IMG/VR virus record: IMGVR_UViG_2778261591_000019
Origin: a virus
Lineage: Duplodnaviria; Heunggongvirae; Uroviricota; Caudoviricetes
Reading direction: 5' to 3' (one strand)
DNA: 12,645 bases
A program made the translations under genes and the position numbers. Below the pieces are notes generated by a model that did not search any database, was not told where the DNA came from, and saw only the letters and a list, made by a program, of their open reading frames with translations. Of the stretch, positions 2,409 through 7,216 are shown piece by piece. Numbering within the stretch: position 1 is the first letter of the stretch; the number at the start of each line of letters is the position of its first letter.

Positions 2409-2840
2409 CTATTCAGGTATTTCAATTCCAAAACCATCTGCATCCCATGAGTTTTCACAGATGATGTAACCTAGTTCATTGAGCTTATTAAATGTTTTTT
2501 CAAAGATGATCTGGTAATCATTATCTGCAAGTGATTCCAGTTCAAGGTCATTAAGGTTTATATAAAAACTTGTATGTCCAAGTGTTATTTTCTTATTGAT
2601 TTCATTAAAAGTTCTTTTGAAAATAATATTTGATATTTCATGCCGTGCATTGTTTGCAATAATTTTTGCTTCATAAGCAGAAATTACGTCATCTTCATGA
2701 ATATCTTTCAGAAAGCTGGTGTCAAGACGTTGTACTATTTCAGCGTTCATTGAGCGCTTATTGGCTTTTGCAGAAATTTCTATTTTTTCTTTTACTTCAA
2801 CGGGAAGTCTGATCCTTAGTTGTGGATCTTCTCTGCTCAT
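2409..2840 (-). CDS. mnt: Mnt-like ribbon-helix-helix repressor with an extra C-terminal domain of about 60 aa
   Basis: N-terminus MSREDPQLRIRLPVEVKEKIEISAKANKRSMNAEIVQRL matches the P22 Mnt RHH motif (DP..F..R.P.EV.EK....A.AN.RSMN.E..Q). ATG at 2840 preceded by a GGTGA SD. Divergent from the arc-like/ant genes as in P22 immI. 143 aa versus 83 aa for P22 Mnt. Confidence 0.75.
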   Translation of the reverse strand: MSREDPQLRIRLPVEVKEKIEISAKANKRSMNAEIVQRLDTSFLKDIHEDDVISAYEAKIIANNARHEISNIIFKRTFNEINKKITLGHTSFYINLNDLELESLADNDYQIIFEKTFNKLNELGYIICENSWDADGFGIEIPE

Positions 2841-2870
2841 GTTCTTCACCAAATATTGAGTTACTTGCAA

Positions 2871-2960
2871 TGATTGAAGTATGCCTCACCGTGTGCTTGA
2901 CATCAATGACGCACGGTGTGACAATTGTTTTGCCCCACGGTGGGGCTAAGGAGATATGAA
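2871..2960. promoter_or_regulatory. Divergent promoter/operator region (Pant-like promoter with RHH operator half-sites)
   Basis: -35 TTGACA (2897-2902), 17-nt spacer, -10 GACAAT (2920-2925), reading toward the arc-like gene. Heptamer CACGGTG at 2912-2918 and 2936-2942 and its reverse complement CACCGTG at 2887-2893, about 24-25 bp apart. SD TAAGGAG at 2947-2953. Confidence 0.45.
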
Positions 2961-3128
2961 ATGCAAAAAGCAAAAGAGATGTGTCAACGACGAGTTCGTT
3001 TTCCGGACGATGTGAAGTTAGCTATTGAAAGAAATGGCGAAAAAGAATGCCGAAAGTTCAATACAGAGATTATCTATCAGCTGAGGAAAGTGTATGGACT
3101 CACTGGTGAGAAGAATAGCGTGGCATAA
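2961..3128 (+). CDS. arc: Arc-like ribbon-helix-helix repressor (55 aa)
   Basis: ATG 2961 with strong SD (TAAGGAG, 7-nt spacing). 55 aa, similar in size to P22 Arc (53 aa). RVRFPDDVKLAI...NTEIIYQLRKV fits the RHH beta-strand/helix pattern. Immediately upstream of the antirepressor gene. Confidence 0.65.
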   Translation: MQKAKEMCQRRVRFPDDVKLAIERNGEKECRKFNTEIIYQLRKVYGLTGEKNSVA

Positions 3129-3200
3129 AACAGCGAAGCCCAACGGTGGCCAGACCGTCAGGGCTTCAGTATCGTAAAACTACGTATAGGAATTAACGAC
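3127..3200 (-). ncRNA. Predicted sar-like small antisense RNA across the antirepressor RBS/start
   Basis: Minus-strand promoter inside the first codons of ant: -35 TTGATA (complement of 3230-3235), 17-nt spacer, -10 TATACT (complement of 3207-3212). Minus-strand terminator: stem GAAGCCC/GGGCTTC (3135-3141 with 3161-3167) followed by a T-tract (complement of 3127-3134). Predicted length about 70 nt, as for P22 sar. Confidence 0.35.
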
Positions 3201-4145
3201 ATGACGAGTATAGCAACAGCGCTATCTACTATCAACGTGCCATTCCACGGCGCAGAACTTTATGTTGTCAATCACAACGGAGAACCGTACACCCCAATGA
3301 AACCTATCGTTGAAGGCATGGGTATGGATTGGGCTTCACAGTTTACGAAAATGAAGCAGCGGTTTAAAACCTGCATTGTGAAAATCACAATGCAGCTTCC
3401 TGGGGATGAACAGCGCCGTGAGATTATTTGTTTGGCACTTCGCAAACTTGCTGGCTGGTTGCAAACCATCAGCCCTAACAAAGTCCGCCCTGAAATCCGC
3501 GACAAGGTAATCCAGTATCAGGAAGAGTGTGACGATGTTCTCTACGAGTACTGGACTAAAGGCCATGTGGTTAACCCACGCAAAGCTAAAAAGGCGTTGC
3601 CGGGTAAAATAACCACTGAACAGCAGGAAGCCATTAAACAACTCGTCATGAGTCGCGGTCAGTCTCTGCCAAAAGAAAAACAGGCTAAGGCGATGATCAC
3701 CATGTGGTCGTCACTGAAATCTCATTTTGGCTGTTCGTACAAAGAAATTGATGAAGATCAATTCGCCGAAGCGTTGTCTCTTGTTGCTCGGGTTCCGCTT
3801 GAAGGGGAGCATCTCCCTGCTGGATCTGCATCAGAGAATGATGAAGTGGCAGTCAAGATGTTAGATGCGCTTCGTGAGGCAATTAAAACACAGACAAAAT
3901 GTTATGGTTATCCGCTGAAGCCCGGCTACCGCAGTCTGATTCATTCGCCGTCTGGTGTTCTCGGCCTGACGGAGAACTCACTGCTGATGAATCTGCTTAA
4001 CCAGTTACAGGACGACGGGCACGATGTATCGGGCGCGGCGGCGGAGCTGACCACCATGTTCTGCTACATCGTCGGTGTGAGCAAGTGCCTGCGTGATATC
4101 CAGACCCACGCGGAGTACATCAACGACAAGGCAGGGTTCTTCTGA
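3201..4145 (+). CDS. ant: Phage antirepressor (Ant); N-terminal AntA-type domain plus a C-terminal module shared with two other genes in the window
   Basis: 314-aa ORF directly after arc in the immI arrangement, with ATG 3201 and AGGA upstream. N-terminus VPFHGAELYVVNHNGEPYTPMKPIVEGMGMDW resembles antirepressor N-domains. C-terminal 77 aa are near-identical to the C-terminus of the 5121-5813 gene. Confidence 0.75.
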   Translation: MTSIATALSTINVPFHGAELYVVNHNGEPYTPMKPIVEGMGMDWASQFTKMKQRFKTCIVKITMQLPGDEQRREIICLALRKLAGWLQTISPNKVRPEIRDKVIQYQEECDDVLYEYWTKGHVVNPRKAKKALPGKITTEQQEAIKQLVMSRGQSLPKEKQAKAMITMWSSLKSHFGCSYKEIDEDQFAEALSLVARVPLEGEHLPAGSASENDEVAVKMLDALREAIKTQTKCYGYPLKPGYRSLIHSPSGVLGLTENSLLMNLLNQLQDDGHDVSGAAAELTTMFCYIVGVSKCLRDIQTHAEYINDKAGFF

Positions 4146-4220: not shown

Positions 4221-4260
4221 AACGAATGCCACCGCCGCCCGGGCGGGAATCCGCAGACAC

Positions 4261-4281
4261 AAAAAAGCCCGCAACGCGGGC
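4261..4281 (-). terminator. Rho-independent terminator for the minus-strand toxin-like operon
   Basis: GCCCGC-AAC-GCGGGC hairpin (4267-4281) immediately after the minus-strand stop at 4282-4284, followed on the minus strand by TTTTTT (complement of 4261-4266). Confidence 0.6.
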
Positions 4282-4827
4282 TTATTCCTTCCATTTATCA
4301 GAAAAAAGATCTTCTTCTAAAGGCATTGGTTCTGTTTTTGTTTTCTCAAAGAATTGATAACTGATAGTGATTGCTTCCTCTTTAAACTCTTCTTGCTCAG
4401 TTATGTTGTGGGCATCTGCGTCAACAAAAAACATAACCAGCGCATCACGATTGTGATTTACCGAATAAACTAAAAAGCAATCACTTGTTGGTATGCATTT
4501 TACTTGCACAGACGCTATATTTTTCCATGCATCCCAAGATGATTTTTTACCAGTGTGTTTTTTATCACTATCTTCTGGAATATAGTCTTGGTTATCGACA
4601 TGAGTATGCCTGACATTTAGTTTAAGCATTTCTGTCGGACGAGCAAATGCAGCATCTTTACCAAGAGATGGATGGTATCCCGTTTTCCAATACTGGGTAA
4701 AGGCATCAGATACTTTCTTCAGCTCAAGATCAGATGCACAAAGGGCCGAGAAATTTTGCGTATGCAATACTCGACCCTTATATCTGACAATTTGATTTTT
4801 ATCATTCTGCGACGCAGACGAACTCAT
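4282..4827 (-). CDS. YafO-like toxin candidate (181 aa)
   Basis: ATG 4827 with AAGGA SD. By-eye similarity to E. coli YafO as I recall it: GKDAAF..P..LKLNVRHTHV versus GRDALY..P..IKFERVAHIHL, and FLVYSV...ALVMFFVDADAH versus HLVYCQ...WLLIAILKPEPH. The YafO sequence is from memory and unverified. Confidence 0.55.
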   Translation of the reverse strand: MSSSASQNDKNQIVRYKGRVLHTQNFSALCASDLELKKVSDAFTQYWKTGYHPSLGKDAAFARPTEMLKLNVRHTHVDNQDYIPEDSDKKHTGKKSSWDAWKNIASVQVKCIPTSDCFLVYSVNHNRDALVMFFVDADAHNITEQEEFKEEAITISYQFFEKTKTEPMPLEEDLFSDKWKE

Positions 4828-4981
4828 AATTTTCCTTATTGTTACGAGAATCAAAGAAAGCTCGGGATACGCGACTTGCGTGATCTTTTGTCATAGTAAC
4901 TTTTACGTACTCTACGCTTCCATTGAAAGAACGTCTTGCGGCAGCTTGCGCTCTACGCATCTGCAATTTTTCGTTTCGCAT
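4802..4981 (-). CDS. Small basic ORF (59 aa) overlapping the start of the toxin-like gene; candidate cognate antitoxin/regulator
   Basis: Not in the supplied ORF track (below size cutoff). ATG 4981 preceded by GAGG SD; stop TGA at 4804-4802 overlaps the downstream gene start by 26 nt. Promoter-like -35 TTGGTT (complement of 5031-5036), 17-nt spacer, -10 TGTAAT (complement of 5008-5013). Product MRNEKLQMRRAQAAARRSFNGSVEYVKVTMTKDHASRVSRAFFDSRNNKENYEFVCVAE. Confidence 0.35.
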   Translation of the reverse strand: MRNEKLQMRRAQAAARRSFNGSVEYVKVTMTKDHASRVSRAFFDSRNNKENYEFVCVAE

Positions 4982-5041
4982 GACATTACCTCATATCTCA
5001 TAAGTTCATTACACGGATTAATAAAAATGAAACCAATCCGT

Positions 5042-5056
5042 TTACCCTTGAGGTAA
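5042..5056. promoter_or_regulatory. TTACC-N5-GGTAA palindrome immediately upstream of the -35 of the toxin-like operon promoter
   Basis: TTACCCTTGAGGTAA read directly; same palindrome family as 6080-6096, 6173-6189 and 7292-7308. Confidence 0.35.
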
Positions 5057-5098
5057 TAGTACGCTATTCACCTGCAATCTGTACAGAATTATTTAAAG

Positions 5099-5353
5099 GC
5101 ACATCCCTGTGCGCCGCCCGTCAGAAGAACCCTGCTTTGTCGTTGATATACTCCGCGTGAGTCTGGATATCACGCAGGCATTTGCTCACACCAACGATGT
5201 AGCAGAACATGGTGGTCAGCTCCGCCGCCGCGCCAGATACGTCGTGCCCGTCTTCCTGTAACTGGTTCAGCAGATTCATCAGCAGTGAGTTCTCCGTCAG
5301 GCCGAGAACACCAGACGGAGAATGAATCAGGCTGCGGTATCCGGGCTTCAGTG
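5099..5353. repeat. Inverted repeat, right copy (3' end of the second antirepressor gene plus flanking bases)
   Basis: See left copy; the two copies encode nearly identical C-terminal peptides KPGYRSLIHSPSGVLGLTENSLLMNLLNQLQ(D/E)DGHDVSGAAAELTTMFCYIVGVSKCLRDIQTHAEYINDKAGFF on opposite strands. Confidence 0.85.
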
Positions 5354-5813: not shown

Positions 5814-6079
5814 GGCGATCACCTTTGTAGTTAGGTTAATCACCACCGCTGAGACCAATCAGATGGTGGTGAACTGTGCAGAGTTGGTCTTACCGGCTAC
5901 AAAGGAACCCGGCGCACCTTTCGGTGCCCCCACACAGCCCACCATAGAATAGGTGCGCTTTACACATAAAAAAACCGCTTATGCGGCATATGTGCCTCTG
6001 TAGTAATCCGGGAGACCAATCCCGGCACTGGATTTTGCCAGTGCCCGGTTACTATGGCACAGGATGAGTGCGATGTAAA

Positions 6080-6172: not shown

Positions 6173-6189
6173 ATTACCTTTAAGGTAAT
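6173..6189. promoter_or_regulatory. ATTACC-N5-GGTAAT palindrome (proximal site, about 20 bp upstream of the 6209 start)
   Basis: ATTACCTTTAAGGTAAT read directly; preceded by ATCACCTGAAAG (6155-6166), which recurs at 7292-7303. Confidence 0.35.
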
Positions 6190-6208: not shown

Positions 6209-6937
6209 ATGGAAGTTTTCTGGATAGTTGTTGGTGTGGTTGCGGTGATTATTTATGTCCTTCACCAGAACAAGACTAAGATCTCTGATCGCACGGTCGT
6301 TAATCATAACAAAACGATAAAGACCGAAGATGGGGAGATAACGATTAATCGTACACAGGTGATAGAACACACCTCTACTCAGTTTCAAAAAACTGGAGGT
6401 AATGCGCCTAATATTTCCGCACCTCCTGCTTATGATAGTGAGGTAATCCAGACATATTATAAACAGCAGGAGTTAGCAAAAGAGAGGCAACTGATTCAGC
6501 CAAAGCCATTTACAGCAGAGCTTCCACCTGGAGTGTCAACGCGTCCGGCATATCATGGAAGATTCCCTGGTGATGACATATCGTCTCAGTCACCTAAAAA
6601 AGCACCTCAGGCAGTATCAGAGTCAGCAAGAATACCTTCTGTATCGCCGTCAAAAGAAGAATCAGCTAACAGAGTTTCAAGTGGCCGCAAGCAGTGTTTG
6701 CGATGCAGAATAAACCTTCCATATGAAAAATTCCGGAAATCGTCAAAAAATCCAGATGGATTGACTAAGTGGTGTGCAAGGTGTCTCGATGGCCCAAAGA
6801 ATACACGTCATATGAAGTGGTGCCCAATTTGTAATGTCCGCAGAAAACGAACCAGCTTTTATCCTAATAATCAAAATGCGGATGGTTTAATGGCATGGTG
6901 CAAAACGTGCTGGGACGAGCACAAAGCGAAACGATAG
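6209..6937 (+). CDS. Membrane-tethered protein with two tandem C-x2-C-x22-C-x2-C zinc-ribbon motifs (242 aa); function unknown
   Basis: ATG 6209 with GAGG SD. N-terminal TM helix (VFWIVVGVVAVIIYVL), S/P/Q-rich linker, then CLRC-x22-CARC and CPIC-x22-CKTC, each with a conserved P...N.DGL..WC core. Confidence 0.7.
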   Translation: MEVFWIVVGVVAVIIYVLHQNKTKISDRTVVNHNKTIKTEDGEITINRTQVIEHTSTQFQKTGGNAPNISAPPAYDSEVIQTYYKQQELAKERQLIQPKPFTAELPPGVSTRPAYHGRFPGDDISSQSPKKAPQAVSESARIPSVSPSKEESANRVSSGRKQCLRCRINLPYEKFRKSSKNPDGLTKWCARCLDGPKNTRHMKWCPICNVRRKRTSFYPNNQNADGLMAWCKTCWDEHKAKR

Positions 6938-6960
6938 GCCGCTCTTGCGGCCTTTTCTTT
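6937..6960 (+). terminator. Rho-independent terminator after the zinc-ribbon gene (possibly bidirectional)
   Basis: GGCCGC-TCTT-GCGGCC hairpin (6937-6952) plus TTTTCTTT; same stem sequence as the ant terminator at 4197-4212. Confidence 0.6.
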
Positions 6961-7216
6961 ATGTAGTTTGTTTTCGTAATTGTTCGGCACAATAGTCGAG
7001 ATGTGTTTGCAGATCCTGCATAGACATCTGTGAGCTGGTGACGTAGTTAATCAGTGCAGTCAGTTCGGCAAGTGGGCCATCGACATTAAATCCATCCTTA
7101 TCGAGATCCCGGAGTAATTTCATCAAGTGCGATCCCTCCACCAGTGACCTGACGCCTCCCGGCGTGTGAATCCTTTCGGTAAATCCCTCTTCCAGTGGAT
7201 AGTGATACTGCTGCAT
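6959..7216 (-). CDS. Stand-alone antirepressor C-terminal-module protein (85 aa)
   Basis: ATG 7216 with GGAG SD. IHTPGGVRSLVEGSHLMKLLRDLDKDGFNVDGPLAELTALINYV...DLQTHLDY aligns with IHSPSGVLGLTENSLLMNLLNQLQDDGHDVSGAAAELTTMFCYI...DIQTHAEY of both antirepressors, about 45% identity by eye. Confidence 0.7.
   Translation of the reverse strand: MQQYHYPLEEGFTERIHTPGGVRSLVEGSHLMKLLRDLDKDGFNVDGPLAELTALINYVTSSQMSMQDLQTHLDYCAEQLRKQTT

Follow-up and report, generated by a model that had tools for sequence, protein, structure and literature searches.

Does a pair of overlapping genes in the immunity region of a temperate phage encode a toxin together with the protein that restrains it, and to whose regulation would such a pair answer? 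This question is raised by a cassette on the minus strand at positions 4282-4981 of a 12,645-nucleotide (nt) stretch of DNA (the window, meaning the whole stretch analysed) from IMG/VR record IMGVR_UViG_2778261591_000019, which we assigned to a temperate E. coli prophage of the phiV10/TL-2011b-like type (Uetakevirus). An earlier note on this DNA had proposed a YafO-like toxin candidate of 181 amino acids (aa) preceded by a small overlapping open reading frame (ORF) of 59 aa. Our analysis points to a type II toxin-antitoxin-like module as the probable answer, one in which a YafO-type mRNA endonuclease would be neutralised by the C-terminal module of a small protein from a new partner family, with the translation of the two genes coupled and their expression tied to a phage operator. 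The cassette has the following features:

4981-4802, minus strand: small ORF (ATG at 4981, stop at 4802), 59-aa basic protein, candidate antitoxin
4827-4282, minus strand: large ORF (ATG at 4827, TAA at 4284-4282), 181-aa YafO-family putative endoribonuclease toxin
4802-4827, minus strand: 26-nt overlap of the two ORFs, with the Shine-Dalgarno (SD) sequence and start codon of the toxin within the 3' end of the small ORF
4992-4989, minus strand: SD sequence of the small ORF, GAGG
4837-4833, minus strand: SD sequence of the toxin, AAGGA, inside the small ORF
4255-4283, minus strand: intrinsic terminator, AAGCCCGC-GTT-GCGGGCTT followed by a T run, beginning within the toxin stop codon

The compact layout described in the earlier note was found intact: both ORFs are present with their 26-nt overlap and an SD sequence each, and the dedicated terminator, recovered by a terminator scan and in the sequence itself, forms a stem-loop (4283-4265) of 8 pairs, 6 of them G-C, ahead of the T run. 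A TTG at 4854 would extend the larger product to 190 aa; ATG 4827 is the start that is kept in relatives and used by RefSeq. The overlap and the internal toxin SD sequence suggest that translation of the toxin is coupled to that of the small protein. The location was also as proposed, between two convergent antirepressor genes, namely ant (3201-4145, plus strand), which is P22-type (P22_AR_N match, E 1e-44), and a Bro-N gene (5121-5816/5858, minus strand). Both ORFs match phage protein clusters (PHROG; E 5e-51 for the 181-aa ORF, E 3e-45 to PHROG 6685 for the 59-aa ORF).

That the 181-aa protein belongs to the YafO family and has the RelE/ParE (BECR) fold is well supported, and RefSeq/PGAP already names such products "type II toxin-antitoxin system YafO family toxin". 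The hidden Markov model search that the earlier note had called for, run on both proteins, returned no Pfam family for the 59-aa protein and YafO_toxin (PF13957) for the 181-aa protein, which scored 26.3 bits (gathering cut-off 25; E 8e-6) with its residues 46-152 aligned to positions 3-92 of the 101-position profile. In the wider family alignment 38 of 59 sequences match PF13957, the best with E 1e-39. When the close family was aligned by hhalign to a canonical YafO set, the probability was 99.8% (E 8e-29, 135 columns) and residues 16-167 covered the whole of YafO, in a test that is not fully independent because the set consisted of 17 canonical-length proteins plus K-12 YafO and all but K-12 YafO were drawn from the hits of the close-family profile search. 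A profile search of 1.84 billion representatives retrieved only 70 proteins at E <= 0.001, which range from a "long form" of 165-195 aa to the canonical length of ~130-150 aa; a scan of genome contigs with the close-family profile yielded no confirmed relative.

Residue conservation and structure prediction agree with the YafO-type identity that the earlier note had recognised by eye. G56 and H76 are invariant, and F43, D58, P64, S115, Y121 and H140 at least 90% conserved, across 59 sequences including K-12 YafO; with H74, also among the family-conserved residues, these give the G / HxH / S-D / Y / H pattern, whose catalytic role is putative. An AlphaFold2 model built from a 79-sequence alignment reached a mean predicted local distance difference test (pLDDT) of 92 and a predicted template modelling score of 0.87 with a RelE-type fold, superseding an unusable model (pLDDT 54) from a 24-sequence close-family alignment. 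Foldseek searches of the toxin model against the PDB and BFVD yielded no significant match, and PDB sequence searches with the protein and family profiles returned nothing meaningful and no YafO structure.

The N-terminal extension noted previously does exist, amounting to only ~15 disordered residues (pLDDT <50 for residues 1-9); the larger departures from canonical YafO are an internal insertion at ~80-112 with two conserved Trp and an acidic C-terminal tail at 164-181 (P-M-P-L-E/D-E-D-L-F-x-x-K-W; PMPLEEDLFSDKW), which is conserved, modelled with high confidence and without counterpart in canonical YafO. Homologues whose partner gene does not overlap start directly at the [F/Y]-K-G-x-V motif, and because the extension is found mainly where the genes overlap, the conservation of MSSSASQ is probably imposed by the C-terminal codons of the partner. 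The EEDLF of the tail was considered as a beta-clamp-binding motif and set aside as a poor match to the QL[SD]LF consensus.

Could the protein then be a degenerate, non-toxic YafO-fold protein with a role other than that of a nuclease and without toxin-antitoxin behaviour? The marginal Pfam score, the acidic character of the protein (charge -4.9 overall and -10 within residues 113-181), the large additions to the core fold and the lack of significant Foldseek matches would fit such an account. We regard it as very improbable, as the eight family-wide positions listed above are retained, the gene is under strong purifying selection (ratio of nonsynonymous to synonymous substitution rates, dN/dS, 0.06-0.09), and the decay observed at related loci (see below) strikes the toxin first, as expected of a harmful gene.

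The 59-aa ORF is a genuine gene. Its dN/dS is 0.16-0.22 against relatives at dS 0.5-0.9, in its own frame only, and the pooled ratio of nonsynonymous to synonymous polymorphism is 0.31 in that frame versus 1.25 and 1.29 in the other two. Annotation has largely passed it by: RefSeq calls it "hypothetical" in one record and does not call it in another, its database relatives are all unnamed, and neither the protein nor its family matches Pfam, NCBIfam, PADLOC or PDB sequences. The protein is strongly basic, as the earlier note had stated, with an isoelectric point of 10.0 and a charge of +4.6, of which residues 1-21 (MRNEKLQMRRAQAAARRSFNG) carry +4.5. Its expected dissimilarity from YafN was likewise upheld, with no BLASTP alignment to YafN and no Phd/YefM signature. 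A ribbon-helix-helix (RHH) architecture, with VKVTM as the strand followed by a helix, was tried and rejected, since no RHH, Arc or CopG match was obtained at E <= 10 and no second helix is evident.

The two genes are consistently inherited together, which bears out the non-canonical pairing anticipated in the earlier note: the partner is unrelated to YafN and yet co-conserved with the toxin. As in type II modules generally, two small, adjacent, co-directional and overlapping genes are inherited together. The pair occurs with an identical 26-nt overlap in 44 of 44 close loci from IMG/VR and RefSeq, and a related partner lies directly upstream of toxin homologues that share only 28-44% identity (loci L047, L048, L049, L051, L053, L054, L056 and L061), so the conservation of the small ORF extends from the close loci to distant homologues. 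In L057 and L060 the upstream ORF is set apart from the toxin gene by ~76 nt and 93 nt, respectively, and resembles the partner only weakly; the other distant pairs are tightly spaced, overlapping by 11-26 nt or lying 2-8 nt apart.

What the partners have in common is a C-terminal module (~residues 24-59 of the 59-aa protein) that reads V-K-V-T-M-T-K-D/E-H-A..V-S-R-A-F-F/Y-D-S-R-N..N-Y-E-F and recurs at the C-terminus of distant partners:

L047 partner: ...KPMSKDSAKEISDYFYNKSKESKRNNEFCCAE
L049 partner: ...SIHFSQKELKEVTDYFYNTRNDPSNYELFE
L053 partner: ...PRISEEESKKLSRNMLEAIRASNNEFKLIAE
L054 partner: ...PKFSKERLSHYTAYFKNTRNSENNYELADD
L061 partner: ...KKLSFSEASALSRELSDSRE...

The L051 and L056 partners carry weaker versions of this module. 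They keep the terminal [D/E]-F motif without a gene overlap, which argues that the motif is selected for the partner's own function. The N-termini, by contrast, differ across the family (53 to 186 aa in total length): the 53-63-aa forms have an Arg-rich helix, and L048, L054 and L061 have an unrelated region of 80-150 aa; no variable N-terminal region matches Pfam. Type II antitoxins are classically built in this way, from a conserved, toxin-proximal C-terminal module and an exchangeable N-terminal part. The decay of the cassette follows a corresponding direction, with the toxin truncated and the partner intact in L045, both genes frameshifted in P0040, and no locus among those examined in which an intact toxin accompanies a broken partner.

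The same protein could be construed differently, as a nucleic-acid-binding accessory factor, transcriptional regulator, chaperone or adaptor, with the nuclease held in check by its own acidic C-terminal tail. In its favour, all members of the close group have an identical partner N-terminus (MRNEKLQMRRAQAAARRS) that looks like an arginine-rich motif, typical antitoxins do not share the basic character of the partner, and the toxin tail is both conserved and confidently modelled. It is nevertheless the C-terminal module, not the Arg-rich N-terminus, that is kept across the wider partner family, the partner matches no known DNA- or RNA-binding family, and it is not the protein that binds the promoter palindrome described below, as phages without it keep the sites. 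We therefore judge this second account doubtful, if somewhat less so than a degenerate toxin.

How is the pair expressed? The region upstream of the small ORF contains these features, together with further copies of one of them elsewhere in the window:

5056-5085, minus strand: conserved sigma-70-like promoter candidate (-35 TGTACA at 5085-5080, 18 nt, -10 TACTAT at 5061-5056)
5008-5040, minus strand: lineage insertion with an inverted repeat (CGGATT at 5040-5035 and AATCCG at 5019-5014, N15) and the promoter proposed in the earlier note
5042-5056, no strand assigned: palindrome TTACC-N5-GGTAA, 15 bp, abutting the -10 hexamer; likely operator at about +1
6095-6081, minus strand: palindrome copy before the unit running into isrK/C4-Bro
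6174-6188, plus strand: palindrome copy before orf242
7307-7293, minus strand: palindrome copy before orf85, with one mismatch

The promoter put forward previously, TTGGTT (5036-5031)-17-TGTAAT (5013-5008), is literally present and scores 3/6 and 5/6 at its hexamers; the promoter scan did not call it, and it lies in a non-conserved insertion of ~25 nt that is specific to the lineage of the window and missing in L033, L038, L039 and L040. A conserved candidate lies further upstream at 5085-5056. In the window it reads TGTACA-18-TACTAT (4/6 and 4/6, below the threshold of the scan), and in an alignment of 9 divergent upstream regions the same place reads TTGnnn-17-TAATAT in L031, L033, L034, L038, L039, L040 and L044, from which we infer that it functions as the promoter. 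A hairpin just past the stop codon of the Bro gene (5090-5120, minus strand; GGCGCACAGGGATGTGCC, then TTTAAAT) is conserved in altered sequence in L031, L038 and L039 (GGCGCAGGGACGCGCC and similar). It was not among the calls of the terminator scan; it is probably the terminator of the Bro gene, separating that gene from the cassette promoter.

The palindrome at the conserved promoter has half-sites that are invariant, and a centre that varies, across all close loci. It occurs in 4 copies in the window versus 0.24 expected, and all four share a "-10 hexamer + TACC" layout, each before a different transcription unit. Palindromes stand at equivalent positions in phiV10, which has no cassette, and in EC.W1-9, which has only a distant homologue pair. 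The palindrome is thus a site of the phage backbone whose binder is not the 59-aa protein, and its candidacy as the partner's own operator was dropped for the same reason; it is probably the operator of a Uetakevirus regulator, and the cassette seems to be connected to the regulatory circuit of the phage itself. A separate, unexplained occurrence of the identical palindrome (TTACCGTAAAGGTAA) was found at 747-761 of L057, a short metagenomic contig, inside the putative partner ORF of a 31% homologue.

The operator also bears on an alternative in which the nuclease serves the lytic cycle as a host-takeover RNase: kept silent in the lysogen by the same regulator as the antirepressor operon, it would be expressed on infection or induction and degrade host or competitor mRNA, with the small protein timing, targeting or restraining it. 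The arrangement "-10 hexamer + TACC-N5-GGTAA" of the cassette promoter recurs before isrK/C4-Bro, an antirepressor unit that should be silent in lysogens, and before orf242 and orf85; phiV10 and EC.W1-9 have the palindrome in their backbone too, and hardly any family member is found outside this phage lineage and genomic slot. We consider this alternative unlikely, though it is the most credible of the three: the possible second promoter at 5036-5008, gained downstream of the operator in the lineage of the window, would not be subject to such control, this type of phage can do without the cassette, and a toxin-antitoxin module would more typically show the strict pairing with a small upstream partner that is seen here.

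On the type II toxin-antitoxin-like reading that we favour, a single mRNA would start from the promoter at ~5085-5056 (and possibly also at 5036-5008) and end at the terminator at 4283-4265. The small protein would be translated first and the overlap would couple translation of the toxin to it; the C-terminal module of the partner (~24-59) would bind and neutralise the toxin, with the Arg-rich N-terminal helix contacting either the acidic C-terminal half of the toxin or a nucleic acid. Upon depletion of the partner, free toxin would cut mRNA, and translation and growth would stop. YafO-type mRNA cleavage that blocks translation is an activity expected of the 181-aa protein by homology (PMC8546651, PMC11980606). 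As the operator is common to the isrK/C4-Bro, orf242 and orf85 units, expression would probably follow the phage regulator and not, or not only, autoregulation by the antitoxin. The antitoxin-then-toxin order recorded for PF_YafO (PMC11980606) is also that of the cassette, which we count as support. Neutralisation by the partner draws indirect support from the conserved C-terminal module with its variable N-terminus, the complementary charges of the two proteins (+4.6 for the partner, -4.9 for the toxin) and the decay pattern.

Several observations weigh against this reading. The PF13957 score is only marginally above its cut-off, and pairwise BLASTP of the 181-aa protein against K-12 YafO was not significant. 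The partner has no recognisable DNA-binding fold, and the charge polarity is reversed relative to classic RelE-type pairs, in which the toxin is basic and the antitoxin acidic. At the promoter of the cassette the only palindrome that is conserved also occurs in phages without the cassette, so the hallmark autoregulation finds no support here. PADLOC-DB v2 gave no defence-system match at E <= 1 for either protein, the sample behind the decay pattern is small, and even for E. coli YafO there is dispute over ribosome dependence and cleavage specificity (PMC8546651). As to the biological pay-off, the module could serve phage exclusion, prophage retention or a function in the lytic cycle; the abortive-infection or stabilisation role suggested in the earlier note is conjecture, and the shared phage operator makes repression of the cassette in the lysogen an alternative to consider.

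Within the phage, the cassette is accessory cargo in a variable region of a Uetakevirus-like prophage: it has its own terminator, is oriented opposite to the flanking structural genes and occupies a slot that is filled by other cargo in relatives. The cassette region is 98% identical to that of phage TL-2011b, where the ORFs are gp45 and gp44, and at least 80% of it was found in 61 of 5426 complete E. coli genomes (~1%). Nearly all family members, including homologues at 32-44% identity, reside in this slot, which is bordered by ejection-protein genes on one side and by orf85/tailspike on the other; a few distant toxin homologues are plasmid-borne or adjoin a restriction-modification gene. Presence varies among otherwise syntenic phages, and phiV10 and most relatives are without the cassette. 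The slot behaves as a cargo hotspot, containing a DUF2335 pair in EC.W1-9, an OspG-like kinase in L049, ORF6N and SLATT_5 proteins in L054/L055, and oac in phiV10 and TL-2011b. In EC.W1-9 (L048) the cargo at 2500-3301 (minus strand), in a slot equivalent to that of the YafO cassette, consists of two genes that overlap by 29 nt and encode a 108-aa protein and a DUF2335 membrane protein of 167 aa; the same phage also has a distant YafO-like pair (139 aa and 168 aa) elsewhere in the region.

How closely does the cassette resemble known systems? E. coli YafN-YafO, encoded in the dinB-yafN-yafO-yafP operon, has a homologous toxin (PF13957) with the conserved G / HxH / (S/T)-D / Y / H positions, the same antitoxin-first order and similarly tight gene spacing. 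The two differ in the partner, which is unrelated to YafN, basic instead of acidic and 59 aa long versus 97 aa; in the toxin, which has 181 aa versus 132 aa and adds the disordered N-terminus, the insertion and the acidic tail; and in context, the cassette being phage-borne with a phage-wide operator whereas YafN-YafO belongs to the SOS-regulated dinB operon. Other members of the RelE/ParE superfamily with the BECR fold (HigB2/HigA2, HigB1, RelE/RelB, YoeB/YefM and YafQ/DinJ) are more remote: their toxins share only 3-17% identity with that of the cassette, which has no Pfam match to these families, the antitoxin family differs, and HigB-type systems are toxin-first whereas the cassette is antitoxin-first. 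The phiV10 oac gene, a Uetakevirus "moron" encoding an O-acetyltransferase for superinfection immunity, uses the same slot as a self-contained unit opposite to the structural genes and is variably present; its biochemistry is different, and no surface-modification function is implied for the cassette.

The surrounding immunity region has features of its own. Tandem Rfam matches to the isrK Hfq-binding RNA (5968-6044, minus strand, 74.7 bits) and the C4 antisense RNA (5862-5949, minus strand, 78.6 bits) lie directly upstream of the Bro-N gene, with a leader that contains a promoter-like TTGATT-18-TATCAT (6124-6095) and a terminator-like hairpin (5987-5974); this isrK/C4-Bro unit is a c4-ant immunity module of the P1/P7 or Gifsy-1 type. 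On the other side, an Rfam match to the antisense sar RNA (3132-3199, minus strand, 45.2 bits, cut-off 43) falls between an arc-like gene (2925-3128) and ant, as in P22 immI, and an Arc/Mnt-like gene for a 153-aa protein (2409-2870, minus strand) diverges from the arc-like gene region. The prophage thus has two different antirepressor control modules, C4/isrK-Bro and sar-ant, side by side. Ant and the Bro-N protein share a near-identical C-terminal region of ~90 aa (...LKPGYRSLIHSPSGVLGLTENSLLMNLLNQLQ.DGHDVSGAAAELTTMFCYIVGVSKCLRDIQTHAEYINDKAGFF), of which orf85 (6959-7216, minus strand; epsilon15 gp19/phiV10 p24-like) encodes a stand-alone homologue; this may be a shared repressor-binding or regulatory domain. 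The 242-aa orf242 product (6209-6937, plus strand) has an N-terminal hydrophobic segment and C-terminal Cys-rich CxxC repeats with a weak Pfam Stc1 match (E 7e-4), and the gene is framed by a palindrome copy before it and a terminator (6936-6953) after it. The annotation of TL-2011b at this position is limited to a misc_feature, "similar to hypothetical protein", and a 40% homologue adjoins the YafO-like pair in L054.

No experimental work on the cassette was found in the literature searched, and one Salmonella prophage paper (PMC9836087) goes no further than naming a yafO-like gene as a possible toxin-antitoxin system. RefSeq already carries the toxin label and the architecture as a whole is what one expects of a type II module, which keeps the practical result modest. 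New relative to annotation and the literature searched are the partner family with its reversed charge polarity, the long-form YafO subfamily and the apparent wiring into the phage operator network. YafO is among the least understood toxins of the RelE superfamily, and the subfamily provides a confidently modelled long form with added elements, accompanied by a candidate antitoxin family that goes wholly unrecorded in current annotation and could be added to toxin-antitoxin and defence finders if the partner is validated. The cassette also offers a natural case of a toxin module plugged into the immunity-region regulation of a temperate phage. More speculatively, and with a likelihood that we would put low, it could be, instead of a conventional addiction or abortive-infection module, a lineage-specific RNase switch under phage control, with a long-form YafO plugged by the conserved C-terminal peptide of a small basic partner of a new class, a charge polarity opposite to that of RelE-type pairs, a promoter under the operator of the antirepressor operon and release tied to the lysis-lysogeny decision; if true, this would mean, for example, host mRNA shut-off on induction or the killing of cells whose immunity collapses.

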